Shown here in pieces: positions 11,507-14,664 of a stretch of DNA of 64,000 nt. The notes below the pieces were generated by a model. That model was not told the origin of the DNA. It saw only the letters and a list, made by a program, of their open reading frames with translations, and did not search any database. The position numbers and the translations under genes are program-made. Source of the stretch: Escherichia phage vB_EcoM_CRJP21; sequence record OQ708376.1, one strand, 5' to 3'. Numbering within the stretch: the stretch's first letter is position 1; the number at the start of each line of letters is the position of its first letter.

Positions 11507-11534
11507 TTGACAAGATAGAATGATGTGATACAAT
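11507..11534 (+). promoter_or_regulatory. Sigma70-type promoter P1 (TTGACA-16-TGaTACAAT)
   Basis: TTGACA at 11507-11512, 16-nt spacer, extended -10 TGaTACAAT ending at 11534. Confidence 0.55.
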
Positions 11535-11599
11535 AAGCATCAGACATAAAGTTTTCAAGCGACACAAGATGTGAGTTTGAAAAAAAAGAAAAAAAGTGA

Positions 11600-11627
11600 T
11601 TGACAAGTTGAAACGATGTGATATAAT
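11600..11627 (+). promoter_or_regulatory. Sigma70-type promoter P2 (TTGACA-16-TGaTATAAT), tandem copy of P1
   Basis: TTGACA at 11600-11605, 16-nt spacer, TATAAT at 11622-11627; shares the gATGTGATAtAAT core with P1. Confidence 0.6.
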
Positions 11628-11689
11628 GTTCACATCAAGACAGCAAAGAGATTTACCTTTTAAACACACGGATGATTCATGAAGTAACA

Positions 11690-11736
11690 AAGGAACTGAT
11701 AAGTTAAATTATTTTAACACAGTTCCTTTACTTTTG
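11690..11736 (+). promoter_or_regulatory. Structured 5' leader hairpin upstream of the MoxR-like gene (possible attenuator)
   Basis: 9-bp perfect stem AAGGAACTG / CAGTTCCTT with an internally palindromic loop, followed by a T-rich run. Confidence 0.35.
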
Positions 11737-11796
11737 CCCACGGATTGGCTATAATAGAAACTTAAACGATTTTATCCAACAAAAGGAAATATATAC

Positions 11797-13122
11797 ATGA
11801 CTACTCAAAACGATATCCTGAACGTTAAACTGACTCCAAAGAAAGCTAAAGAAGCAATGGCACTAGCTGACATGATTCAAGATAGCCTGATGATTTGGGG
11901 TAGCCCAGGTATCGGTAAGTCTGCAATCGCTCGTCAATACGCTGATGAAAATTACCCACTGCGTAAAGATAACGTAGCTAAAATCGAGTTCATGAAACAA
12001 CAAATCGAAGCTGACCCTGAAAATGCTGATCAGCTACGCCGTGAACTGGCTGCATTTGAAGCAAAACTAATCGACCAAGATACTAACTTTATCGATTTCC
12101 GTTTGTCTCAAATCGAACCAAGTGACCTTCGCGGTATTCCAGTACCAGAGAAGCTTTTCCGTAAAACTGACGGTTCTCTTCTGAAAGAATCTGAGCTTGC
12201 CGAAGCAAAAGATTATGTAGCTGAAACTGCGGTAGTATGGGCTGCACCTAAAGTTCTGAAATTGTCCGAAGATTGGAAAGGTGTTATTCTGTTTGACGAA
12301 ATTAACTCTGCAATGCCTATTGTTCAGGCAGCGTCTTATCAGCTAATCCTCGACCGTTGTGTTGGTGAGATGAAGCTACCTAAGACTGCACTGATTCTTG
12401 CAGCAGGTAACCGTGAAACTGATGGCGGTGTAACTTTCTCTCTTGCTACACCACTGCGTGACCGTATGACTCACATTGAGATGATTCCTTATCATCAAGA
12501 TTGGATTAACGATTATGCGATTGCAAAACGTTTGAACCCAGCAACTGTTGCGTTCATCAACAACACTGGTTCTAAGTACTTTAACACACTTAGTCCACAA
12601 GATCCTTCTCACAGTGGTGGTACTTCTCCACGTTCATGGGAAGCAGTAGCACGCTACGAAGATCTCAAGAAAACTAAGACAATTGATAAAGAAGTGTTCC
12701 GTGCAATGATTGCTGGTCGTGTTGGTGAAGGTGTTGCAACTGAATACATTGAGTACGTTGAGAACGTTGCTAAATTACCAGATACTATGTCTATTCTGTC
12801 TGGTGAAATCAAAGAAATCGACGCAACGCTGGATATTTCTGCGAACTACTTTATCACTCTGAACTTGGTTTATAAAATTATCGACCTGTTCAATGAGAAG
12901 CAAGAACAACGTCTACCAGTGGAAGAATGGGGTAAACTGTGTAACAACTTCATCACCTTCCTAGACCATAACTTCTCTGCAACTCAAGCAGAACTGGCAG
13001 TACTGGCAATTCGTACCATCACGCTTCATAAGGTTGCGATTTCCATTAAAGATGTACCAGCGTTTAAAGATTTCATCGCTAAGTACTCTGATCTTGTACG
13101 TAAAGCACGCTCTCTTGGCTAA
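11797..13122 (+). CDS. MoxR/CobS-type AAA+ ATPase
   Basis: 441 aa; Walker A GSPGIGKS; Walker B ILFDEINSA; MoxR-like sensor/second-region stretch LPKTALILAAGNRE...ATPLRDRMTHIEM. Confidence 0.8.
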   Translation: MTTQNDILNVKLTPKKAKEAMALADMIQDSLMIWGSPGIGKSAIARQYADENYPLRKDNVAKIEFMKQQIEADPENADQLRRELAAFEAKLIDQDTNFIDFRLSQIEPSDLRGIPVPEKLFRKTDGSLLKESELAEAKDYVAETAVVWAAPKVLKLSEDWKGVILFDEINSAMPIVQAASYQLILDRCVGEMKLPKTALILAAGNRETDGGVTFSLATPLRDRMTHIEMIPYHQDWINDYAIAKRLNPATVAFINNTGSKYFNTLSPQDPSHSGGTSPRSWEAVARYEDLKKTKTIDKEVFRAMIAGRVGEGVATEYIEYVENVAKLPDTMSILSGEIKEIDATLDISANYFITLNLVYKIIDLFNEKQEQRLPVEEWGKLCNNFITFLDHNFSATQAELAVLAIRTITLHKVAISIKDVPAFKDFIAKYSDLVRKARSLG

Positions 13123-13142
13123 TTAACAAAGAGTTGTTGACA

Positions 13143-13175
13143 AGAAGGATGCCTAATGGTATCCTTCTTTTATCT
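13143..13175 (+). terminator. Hairpin with T-tract between the MoxR-like and VWA genes (possible partial terminator)
   Basis: AGAAGGAT-loop-ATCCTTCT followed by TTTATCTT; overlaps a TTGACA hexamer at 13137-13142. Confidence 0.45.
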
Positions 13176-13196
13176 TAACTAAACGAGGAAATATAC

Positions 13197-14621
13197 ATGT
13201 CAGATAACAAATCTACTTCAAGATTCAATGAAGTATCTCCGGCACTCCAGAAAGAATGTCAAGAACGTCTGGTTCTGGCTCGTACATCTTTGATGTTAAC
13301 TGCACCATTCTTTGGTGTACTCGCTTCACGTTTACGTCCAGTTCCTAATAATACATGGTGTCGTACTCTAGCAGTGGATGGTAAACATCTATTCTACAAC
13401 GTAGAATTTGTAATGGGCATTCAAGACCCATCTAAAAAGAAAGAATATGAAGAAGCTATTCGTGAAAAGCACCCTGAAGTTACAGACGAACAATTAAAAG
13501 AAATGACTGAAGGTTTGACTGATGAAAACCTTGTTGCTGTAATTTGTCATGAAATTCTACACTGTGCTTACGATCACTTCCTTCGTCGTGGTATGCGTGA
13601 TCCACAACGTTATAACCGTGCAGCGGATTATGCCATTAACCAAATCATCGTTCGTGAGAAAATTGGGAAAATCCAAAGTTCATGGTTGTATGATAAAAAA
13701 TATGAAGGCATGACCGCAGAAGAGATTTACATTCTTCTTGAAGAAGAAGAACAAAAAGAAGATGGTGAAGGTGAAGGTCAACCACAAAGTGGCGGCGGTG
13801 AAGGTGAAGGTAAAAATCGCGGTACTTTTGGCGATATTAAAGATGGTAAGGGTAAACCAAAAGGTACTACCATTGACCAGCATGACGTTCCACAAGAAGG
13901 TCAAGAGGGTGGTTCAAGTGAACAGCAAAAACGTGATTACATGGATGATTTCAAAACAGCAATGATGAATGCTGCTCGTGCAGGTGGTACACCAGCAGAA
14001 ATCGCTCGTATGATTAACAACTTTAAAGAACCAAAGATTGACTGGCGTTCAAAACTTCAACGTACACTTCGTAGTTGGTTGAAGTCTGATGCAACATATC
14101 AAAATCCGAATCGTCGTTCTTGGGGTGCAGGTTTTGGTTCTAATGGCTCATTCTATGGTAATCCAATTTACCCAGGGATGAAACCAGATGATGATATTGA
14201 TATTGCGATTGCACTAGATGCTTCTGGGTCTATTTCTGAAGATATGCTTCGTGATTTCATTAGTGAAGTTCTTGGCATCACTAAACAATTCAAACAGTTT
14301 AAGATTCGTATCATGACTTTTGATACTGAAGTTTATACTGTAAAGGATTACAAAACTGGCGAAGAACGTAAGATTCTGGAATATCCAGTAAAAGGTGGTG
14401 GTGGTACTGACTTTGAAGCAGTATGGGTTCATATGAAGAACGACAACTACAAGCCTAAACAGCTTGTAATGTTTACTGATGGTGAACCGTGGCAGTCATG
14501 GGGTGATCCAAACTACTGTAAAACACTGTTCGTGATTCACAGTAACCCAAATAAAGTTGCACCATTTGGTGAGACTGTACACTACGAATATGAAGCTGAT
14601 AAAAAGCGTCAACGTAGTTAA
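13197..14621 (+). CDS. VWA (MIDAS) domain protein with N-terminal HExxH putative metallopeptidase domain
   Basis: 474 aa; N-terminal HEILH (HExxH); G/E-rich low-complexity linker; C-terminal VWA with MIDAS residues DASGS ... GGGTD ... TDGEP. Confidence 0.7.
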   Translation: MSDNKSTSRFNEVSPALQKECQERLVLARTSLMLTAPFFGVLASRLRPVPNNTWCRTLAVDGKHLFYNVEFVMGIQDPSKKKEYEEAIREKHPEVTDEQLKEMTEGLTDENLVAVICHEILHCAYDHFLRRGMRDPQRYNRAADYAINQIIVREKIGKIQSSWLYDKKYEGMTAEEIYILLEEEEQKEDGEGEGQPQSGGGEGEGKNRGTFGDIKDGKGKPKGTTIDQHDVPQEGQEGGSSEQQKRDYMDDFKTAMMNAARAGGTPAEIARMINNFKEPKIDWRSKLQRTLRSWLKSDATYQNPNRRSWGAGFGSNGSFYGNPIYPGMKPDDDIDIAIALDASGSISEDMLRDFISEVLGITKQFKQFKIRIMTFDTEVYTVKDYKTGEERKILEYPVKGGGGTDFEAVWVHMKNDNYKPKQLVMFTDGEPWQSWGDPNYCKTLFVIHSNPNKVAPFGETVHYEYEADKKRQRS

Positions 14622-14633
14622 GTACTAAATAAT

Positions 14634-14664
14634 GAGAACGGAAAATTCCGTTCTCTTCTTTTAT
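14634..14664 (+). terminator. Rho-independent terminator after the VWA gene
   Basis: GAGAACGG-aaaatt-CCGTTCTC followed by a T-rich tract. Confidence 0.6.

Follow-up and report, generated by a model that had tools for sequence, protein, structure and literature searches.

A MoxR-clade ATPase and its zincin-VWA partner in Escherichia phage vB_EcoM_CRJP21: a widespread phage gene pair with a possible function before virion assembly

Examination of a 64,000-nucleotide stretch of the genome of Escherichia phage vB_EcoM_CRJP21 (sequence record OQ708376.1; the whole stretch is hereafter referred to as the window) shows that positions 11,507 to 14,664 hold a genuine two-gene unit, encoding an AAA+ ATPase and a partner protein that combines a zincin-like HExxH domain with a VWA domain carrying a metal ion-dependent adhesion site (MIDAS). 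The unit had been correctly annotated in an earlier reading made from the letters alone (hereafter the sequence-only reading), and both of the open reading frames (ORFs) that it named are present at the coordinates it gave (Table 1). Sequence comparisons identify the two proteins as orthologs of gp24 and gp25 of phage N4, and the pair belongs to a family that is already described, in these very phages. With moderate confidence, we propose that the pair is a pre-late, ATP-driven protein-remodeling machine with a built-in zinc peptidase.

The family in question is very large and includes core genes of N4-like phages as well as genes of therapy-relevant jumbo and rV5-like coliphages. The sole published hypothesis on its role, namely virion assembly coupled to proteolytic processing, conflicts with the early-type promoters reported here and with the replication-gene neighborhoods of the pair elsewhere. 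At stake is whether a conserved targeted protease, driven by ATP, belongs to the repertoire of large phages and does its work ahead of morphogenesis.

Domain architecture of the two proteins

The ATPase contains intact canonical Walker A (GSPGIGKS, residues 35-42, including K41 and S42) and Walker B (D167-E168) motifs, as the sequence-only reading had stated. In an alignment of 27 homologs these motifs are invariant or nearly so, as are N205, R206, R223, and R279, which sit where sensor 1, the arginine finger, and sensor 2 are expected. The protein matches phrog_1297 ('ATPase') at 3e-107. Taken alone, it scores 21.3 bits against Pfam AAA and 16.7 bits against AAA_3, the latter below the cut-off of 27, and searches of PDB with either the ATPase or the partner as a single sequence gave no match. 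Among the 27 homologs, AAA_3 (MoxR) is matched by 12 (best 2e-10) and AAA_5 by 11 (best 3e-11), and the best PDB match of the family profile is the AAA ring of midasin/Rea1 (6e-14). These matches of the homologs and of the family profile point to the MoxR/AAA_5 clade of AAA+ proteins for the ATPase. Relative to the 360-amino-acid form, the ATPase of jumbo phages carries two insertions, at residues ~52-96 and ~118-145.

In Pfam searches the partner matches, above threshold, the two families to which the sequence-only reading had pointed: DUF2201_N (PF13203, 'putative metallopeptidase domain'; 2e-35, with 123.2 bits where the cut-off is 23.2) and DUF2201 (PF09967, 'VWA-like domain'; 7e-21). The C-terminal domain shows a VWA fold. 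A zincin-like domain (residues ~15-190, together with helices at 242-297) is joined through a linker (~181-240) to the VWA/MIDAS domain (335-465). The residues H118-E119-xx-H122, H127, and D144 are invariant, even in the rV5-like, N4-like, and Thermus phage homologs that share only 30-36% identity, and the HExxH motif lies within a helix (109-124) of the predicted model. The structural neighbors of the N-terminal domain of this model are overwhelmingly peptidases. A search of PDB with the partner profile gave no match. The MIDAS is complete (D341-x-S343-x-S345, T404, and D428), and its residues do not vary among 24 close and 8 distant sequences. Residues 181-240 contain 16 Gly and 16 Asp/Glu per 60 positions and are disordered in the AlphaFold2 model. 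The succession of HExxH domain, acidic linker, and VWA domain with a complete MIDAS that had been read from the sequence is upheld.

Two further short motifs are found in poorly modeled linker segments of the partner. LDxH, at residues 225-229 (window ~13869-13883), includes D227 and H229, both invariant in 54 sequences; RPxRR, at residues 303-307 (window ~14103-14117), includes R306, which is invariant, and the motif is present even in N4 gp25. Either motif could be a pseudosubstrate, a self-cleavage site, or a docking site for the ATPase.

The partner falls in phrog_1314, which is wrongly named 'HNH endonuclease'. Public records widely give members of the family the mistaken label 'HNH endonuclease' or 'homing endonuclease' (in PBECO4, in the RefSeq entries of 121Q and of N4 gp25, in Paride_0139, and in others), and this mislabeling apparently goes back to the name of phrog_1314. 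There is no support for a nuclease label anywhere in the partner sequence, and such labels conceal the family from searches. In phage Paride, an adjoining 'homing endonuclease' was considered as a second partner paralog and rejected, since it does not match the partner profile.

Relationship to N4 gp24/gp25 and to other known systems

Over positions 11400-14700 of the window, identity is 100% with Escherichia phages PBECO4 and SHEFM2K and 99.2% with 121Q, phAPEC6, and G17. All five are Asteriusvirus jumbo myoviruses with genomes of ~350 kb, and CRJP21 likewise belongs to the Asteriusvirus jumbo coliphages; the 121Q counterparts are gp563 ('ATPase') and gp564 ('Zn-dependent hydrolase'). The relationship to N4 is far more distant but spans the full length of both proteins: gp24 and gp25 match the ATPase and the partner, respectively, at 1e-28 and 7e-31 in BLASTP and at 8e-61 and 5e-40 in profile comparisons, with the same gene order and domain order, and gp25 contains both an HExxHxxxxH motif and the MIDAS residues. 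The N4 proteins differ in being shorter (352 and 380 amino acids) and in lacking the long Gly/Glu linker and the jumbo-specific insertions, i.e., the two in the ATPase and one at ~74-106 of the partner. Moreover, gp24 and gp25 are located among middle and replication genes and are transcribed by N4 RNA polymerase II rather than from sigma70 promoters. The list of 14 genes that form the core of N4-like phages contains both, as 'unknown' and 'vWFA domain' proteins, respectively, and both belong to the N4 middle transcripts (Chan et al., 2014; PMC4193335).

Furthermore, a MoxR-vWA pair with an N-terminal metallopeptidase domain has been described in group 2.2 jumbo phages and, by analogy with Acidianus two-tailed virus (ATV), proposed to function in virion assembly and peptidolytic processing (Iyer et al., 2021, Viruses 13:63; PMC7824862). 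The CRJP21 pair agrees with it in domain architecture and in phage group, and the two are one and the same entity. Together with the N4 orthologs, the Pfam families DUF2201_N and DUF2201, and PHROGs 1297 and 1314, this description means that the pair is not the undescribed system for which the sequence-only reading took it. The absence of a demonstrated function, also part of that reading, stands: literature searches likewise found no functional study. The 2021 work includes no analysis of the locus; what is added here is the promoter and hairpin architecture of an apparently hairpin-tuned operon, the orthology with N4 gp24/gp25, the scale, strict linkage, and cellular distribution of the family, and the mismatch with a role in late assembly.

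Several other systems resemble the pair in part. In ATV, the MoxR protein p618 and the VWA protein p892 set a precedent for a role in virion assembly (PMC7824862, PMC7159879). The likeness lies in a viral MoxR ATPase that acts with a VWA protein; the ATV proteins lack a peptidase domain and belong to an archaeal virus that forms its tails extracellularly. For the N-terminal domain of the partner, the nearest solved folds are selecase, minigluzincins, Wss1/Spartan (SprT-like) proteins, ArdC, and the M48/M56 peptidases, and, as in minimal zincins, the active-site helix bears HExxH with another histidine five residues on. By analogy only, the coupling of an AAA+ motor to an HExxH zincin recalls FtsH-type AAA+ zinc proteases. 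FtsH, however, is a single membrane-anchored chain of another AAA+ clade, whereas here two proteins, predicted to be soluble, are involved, one of them with a MIDAS adaptor.

The possibility that the pair is an ordinary CobS/CobT cobaltochelatase, which the sequence-only reading had itself raised as fatal to its proposal, is ruled out: neither the two proteins nor the 27 ATPase homologs match CobS, CobT, CobT_C, or CobN in Pfam, and NCBIfam gave no match at all. The link drawn in the same reading to NTP-dependent biological-conflict systems found no support. The candidate here, the MoxR-vWA ternary conflict system with a VMAP, beta-propeller, or FtsH third component (Kaur et al., 2020), was rejected, as were known defense systems, because 41 cellular loci show no conserved third component and the PADLOC defense-system models yielded 0 matches; bpMoxR is matched, weakly, by only 3 of the 27 ATPase homologs.

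Distribution and gene neighborhoods

By tblastn, 684 phage records contain the partner and 815 contain the ATPase, and the genera represented match between the two. The range comprises Asteriusvirus, other Rak2-like jumbo phages, PA5oct-like, rV5-like, and N4-like (Schitoviridae) phages, Campylobacter phages, Thermus phage phiFa, and others, to which BFVD adds homologs in cyanophage S-TIM5 and in roseophages; altogether, roughly 1.5% of sequenced phage genomes encode the family. The partner profile retrieves 24,919 clusters at 50% identity (6,712 of these at E <=1e-30), nearly all of which are 380-480 amino acids long, implying that both domains are present. In GTDB genomes, 41 of the 45 informative loci place the ATPase homolog upstream of the partner, at a distance of 0-3 kb and on the same strand; the order is reversed in 4 Firmicutes loci. 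The two genes are also linked in N4-like phages, phiFa, Eneladusvirus, and PA5oct-like phages. Clustering of the neighbors across 49 loci revealed no third gene family in more than 6 loci.

In other genomes the neighbors are genes for replication or early functions. In N4, gp24 and gp25 are followed by dCTP deaminase; in Pseudomonas phage Ka4, the order is ATPase, hypothetical protein, partner, Dda helicase, and DNA polymerase; in Thermus phage phiFa, an RNase H gene separates the ATPase and partner genes; and in a Brucella element, an ATP-dependent DNA ligase and a beta clamp are encoded near the pair. The neighbors in the rV5-like Escherichia phage isim are rIIA and a gene annotated 'anti-sigma factor'. 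In rV5-like phages the pair is not adjacent: in isim (2159-3612 and 6995-8455 of locus L002), the MoxR ATPase, annotated as two ORFs, lies 3.6 kb away on the opposite strand, and the partner follows the 'anti-sigma factor' gene.

Some of the cellular loci clearly lie in bacterial chromosomes. The gene order lipA, lipB, ATPase, NnrS, partner, and rhodanese is found in SUP05/Thioglobus, and in six loci from SUP05/Thioglobus and the PS1 clade the pair lies between lipA/lipB and rhodanese. In several of these loci the gene for the membrane protein NnrS separates the ATPase from the partner, and a nearby ORF of 144 amino acids occurs in some. This setting hints at a cellular role linked to a membrane metalloprotein.

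Transcription unit and surroundings

The sequence-only reading described the unit as a module bracketed by tandem promoters and a terminator. Both of these elements are real and conserved in relatives, but the description was incomplete, given that a leader hairpin, an intercistronic hairpin, and a third promoter-like site had been overlooked. The common 28-nucleotide pattern of promoters P1 and P2 had 0 matches in 100 shuffles, and across all 64 kb no more than four intergenic sites, P1 and P2 among them, score >=11/12. P1 is kept in 121Q, UE-S1, and BF17; in BF17, which is ~87% identical over the locus, the promoter hexamers are kept and the spacers differ. At the position that matches P2, TGGTATAAT is retained even in Yersinia phage fHe-Yen9-04, in which the ATPase and the partner share ~59% identity with the CRJP21 pair.

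Between P1/P2 and the ATG of the ATPase lie the leader hairpin, annotated as an ARNOLD terminator in the G17 record and kept in BF17, and the promoter-like site P3, which overlaps the 3' side of this hairpin and is identical in sequence in four Asteriusvirus genomes; both elements are conserved within the genus. Transcription from P1 and P2 may accordingly be attenuated or yield short leader RNAs. Between P2 and the start codon, the leader (11634-11800) has a better fold than shuffled versions (z -2.8), and a search of 11000-15200 against Rfam gave chance-level matches only. The segment 11541-11730 on the plus strand, which holds only tiny ORFs, could yield short RNAs of ~95 and ~190 nucleotides.

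The intercistronic hairpin is the most stable of the locus, exceeding even the 3' terminator, and is probably a partial terminator that reduces expression of the partner relative to the ATPase. The 3' terminator is independently annotated in the UE-S1 and G17 records. In fHe-Yen9-04 hairpins are retained at both the intercistronic and the 3' terminator positions, with different sequences.

With respect to timing, the genes upstream of the pair encode virion structural proteins, and most structural genes of the window have the motif ATAAATA, which looks like a T4-type late promoter, 13-65 nucleotides upstream of their start codons. The motif occurs 14 times in the window, 10 times in intergenic DNA, although such DNA makes up only ~3.6 kb of the total. 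Upstream of the ATPase, in 11484-11796, the motif is missing. Expression ahead of the late genes, as assumed in the sequence-only reading, would therefore be expected from the sigma70 and extended -10 promoters and from the missing late motif. The related jumbo phage PA5oct is dependent on its host's RNA polymerase and has TTGAC/TATAATA promoters (PMC7318152). The description of the pair as embedded in a late structural region fits the upstream side; the downstream side is another sigma70-type operon that runs through thymidylate synthase, and the pair hence appears to lie in an early-type island of ~5.7 kb (~11.5-17.2 kb) flanked by two late clusters, a layout that Eneladusvirus shares.

Table 1. 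Coordinates of the gene pair, its regulatory elements, and other features of the window
Feature	Position	Strand	Details
MoxR/AAA_5-clade AAA+ ATPase	11797..13122	+	441 aa, 49.5 kDa; N4 gp24 ortholog
Partner protein	13197..14621	+	474 aa; zincin-like HExxH domain, linker, VWA/MIDAS; N4 gp25 ortholog
Promoter P1	11507..11534	+	TTGACA-16-TACAAT, extended -10 TG, 11/12
Promoter P2	11600..11627	+	TTGACA-16-TATAAT, extended -10 TG, 12/12
Leader stem-loop	11689..11729	+	terminator-like, possible attenuator; dG -15.2 kcal/mol, z -5.6
Promoter-like site P3	11727..11755	+	TTTACT-17-TATAAT, 10/12; 42 nt before ATG; putative function
Intercistronic stem-loop	13142..13169	+	12 bp, followed by UUUUAUCUU; dG -19.3, z -6.1
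Intrinsic terminator closing the unit	14634..14655	+	palindromic; reads on both strands
Second sigma70-type operon	14669-17161	+	directly downstream of terminator; four ORFs through thymidylate synthase
Extended -10 promoter of downstream operon	14669-14696	+	conservation extends to Yersinia phage fHe-Yen9-04
218-aa protein	14979-15635	+	phrog_15894; no Pfam or PDB match
SLOG/DprA-like protein	15639-16232	+	phrog_768 at 1e-26; weak Pfam YAcAr match
Promoter-like sites of ClpA/B-like gene	37718-37747, 37950-37977	+	sigma70 + extended -10 type
ClpA/ClpB-like double-ring AAA+ protein	38018-40306	+	762 aa; phrog_4871; Clp_N, AAA, AAA_lid_9, AAA_2 (2e-49), ClpB_D2-small
ATAAATA motif, examples	266, 3340, 7051, 7576, 32299	+	
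ATAAATA motif, examples	60919, 54880, 53921, 50358, 32270, 19200	-	

Functional implications

The generic logic of MoxR-VWA systems is established for CbbQO, NorQD, RavA-ViaA, and midasin. By analogy with these and other characterized MoxR proteins, the MoxR-clade ATPase would assemble into a ring on which the partner would dock; the MIDAS site of the partner could then capture an acidic side chain of a target protein, ATP hydrolysis would remodel or expose this target, and the N-terminal zincin domain might finally cut either the target or the partner's own linker. All residues needed for the ATPase, MIDAS, and zincin activities are conserved. The unit would be transcribed before the late genes by the unmodified host sigma70 RNA polymerase, with the two internal hairpins tuning expression such that the ATPase would be present in excess over the partner, as suggested by the strength and the evolutionary retention of the intercistronic hairpin. 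The target is most likely a non-virion protein or complex of the early-to-middle phase of infection, involved in genome replication or host takeover, rather than a structural protein; a pre-late, non-virion role is suggested by the sigma70 promoters, by the missing late motif, by the classification of gp24 and gp25 as middle genes in N4, and by the replication and early neighbors in other genomes.

Several observations weigh against this proposal. The timing in CRJP21 is read from promoter motifs, and phage gene neighborhood is weak evidence of function. Furthermore, the location of the unit directly 3' of the virion structural block and between structural clusters is conserved across Asteriusvirus and Eneladusvirus, and mass spectrometry of virion preparations from phAPEC6 detected the ATPase with 6 peptides and a coverage of 19% (with matching masses, in the portion of the published data considered here); both facts favor a role in morphogenesis. 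They are in line with the published proposal (PMC7824862) that the ATPase is a virion-assembly chaperone that aids head or tail assembly and that the zincin is a maturation peptidase that processes structural proteins, and the status of the pair as core genes of N4-like phages would suit such a basic life-cycle function. We nevertheless consider an assembly role somewhat unlikely. Apart from the sigma70-type promoters and the missing late motif, N4 gp24 and gp25 are middle genes amid replication genes, and the chromosomal pairs of bacteria, located between lipA/lipB and rhodanese, have no virion genes nearby. As for the mass spectrometry, the portion of the phAPEC6 virion list considered also includes thymidylate synthase and a 25-kDa neighbor protein, which makes carry-over of abundant non-structural proteins likely, and the partner is absent from this portion of the table. 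Given the thymidylate synthase in the same list, we do not accept the ATPase peptides as proof of a structural role.

The proposal of a pre-late remodeling machine can be sharpened to a specific hypothesis, speculative and on balance unlikely to be correct in full: the pair would be an early or middle ATP-dependent, MIDAS-targeted protease that cuts or dismantles one specific host or replication-associated complex, and not an assembly chaperone, with the LDxH motif of the linker serving as a pseudosubstrate latch that the ATPase releases. If this were the case, the pair would represent a takeover step, overlooked despite the core-gene status of the pair, that the main lineages among large virulent phages (N4-like, rV5-like, Rak2/121Q-like jumbo, and PA5oct-like) have in common.

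Conceivably, the pair could instead be a dedicated counter-defense or host-takeover protease, made early, whose MIDAS recognizes a specific host protein that is then destroyed. The early-type promoters and the presence of ArdC-, Wss1-, and Spartan-type minimal zincins among the structural neighbors of the N-terminal domain are compatible with this idea, as is the only other gene of the window with the P1/P2 type of promoter, which encodes a ClpA/B-like unfoldase and suggests an early proteostasis set. However, the pair is a core component of phages with very different hosts, and its chromosomal copies are found beside housekeeping genes, a pattern unlike that of anti-defense genes, which evolve fast and are patchy in distribution. 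Furthermore, the catalytic core is highly conserved, with no sign of diversification seen, and PADLOC provided no matches. We regard a dedicated counter-defense function as decidedly improbable. Even less probable is a factor for metal-cofactor insertion or enzyme activation akin to NorQ/NorD, CoxD/CoxE, CbbQ/CbbO, or the chelatases, in which HExxH would hold a metal without cutting peptides: no CobS/CobT/CobN or chelatase family is matched above threshold (a Mg_chelatase match at E 0.006 is below the cut-off), phage copies of the pair show no consistent linkage to a metalloenzyme gene, and both Pfam and the structural neighbors of the N-terminal domain point overwhelmingly to peptidases. The partners in CbbQ/CbbO, NorQ/NorD, CobS/CobT, and BchI/BchD lack an HExxH domain, and the targets of these systems are metalloenzymes.

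Neighboring genes

The operon directly downstream of the terminator encodes an 86-amino-acid ORF, a 218-amino-acid ORF, a SLOG/DprA-like protein, and thymidylate synthase. The 218-amino-acid protein is confined to jumbo phages, with 85 records that include Atu_ph07 and PA5oct-like phages. Its gene is a neighbor of the pair in Rak2-like phages; it also lies just 3' of the pair in five distant phage-like contigs that had been binned into metagenome-assembled genomes. We considered it as a third component of the module and rejected it on account of its restriction to jumbo phages (85 records vs. ~700), its own transcription unit in CRJP21, and its location in PA5oct-like phages, where it is encoded 5 kb away on the opposite strand. 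Its mass, 25.03 kDa, matches that of phAPEC6 gp262c, for which the portion of the virion data considered lists one peptide.

The gene for the ClpA/ClpB-like protein forms a plus-strand island among minus-strand structural genes, and the pair and this unfoldase may together make up the early-expressed proteostasis set.

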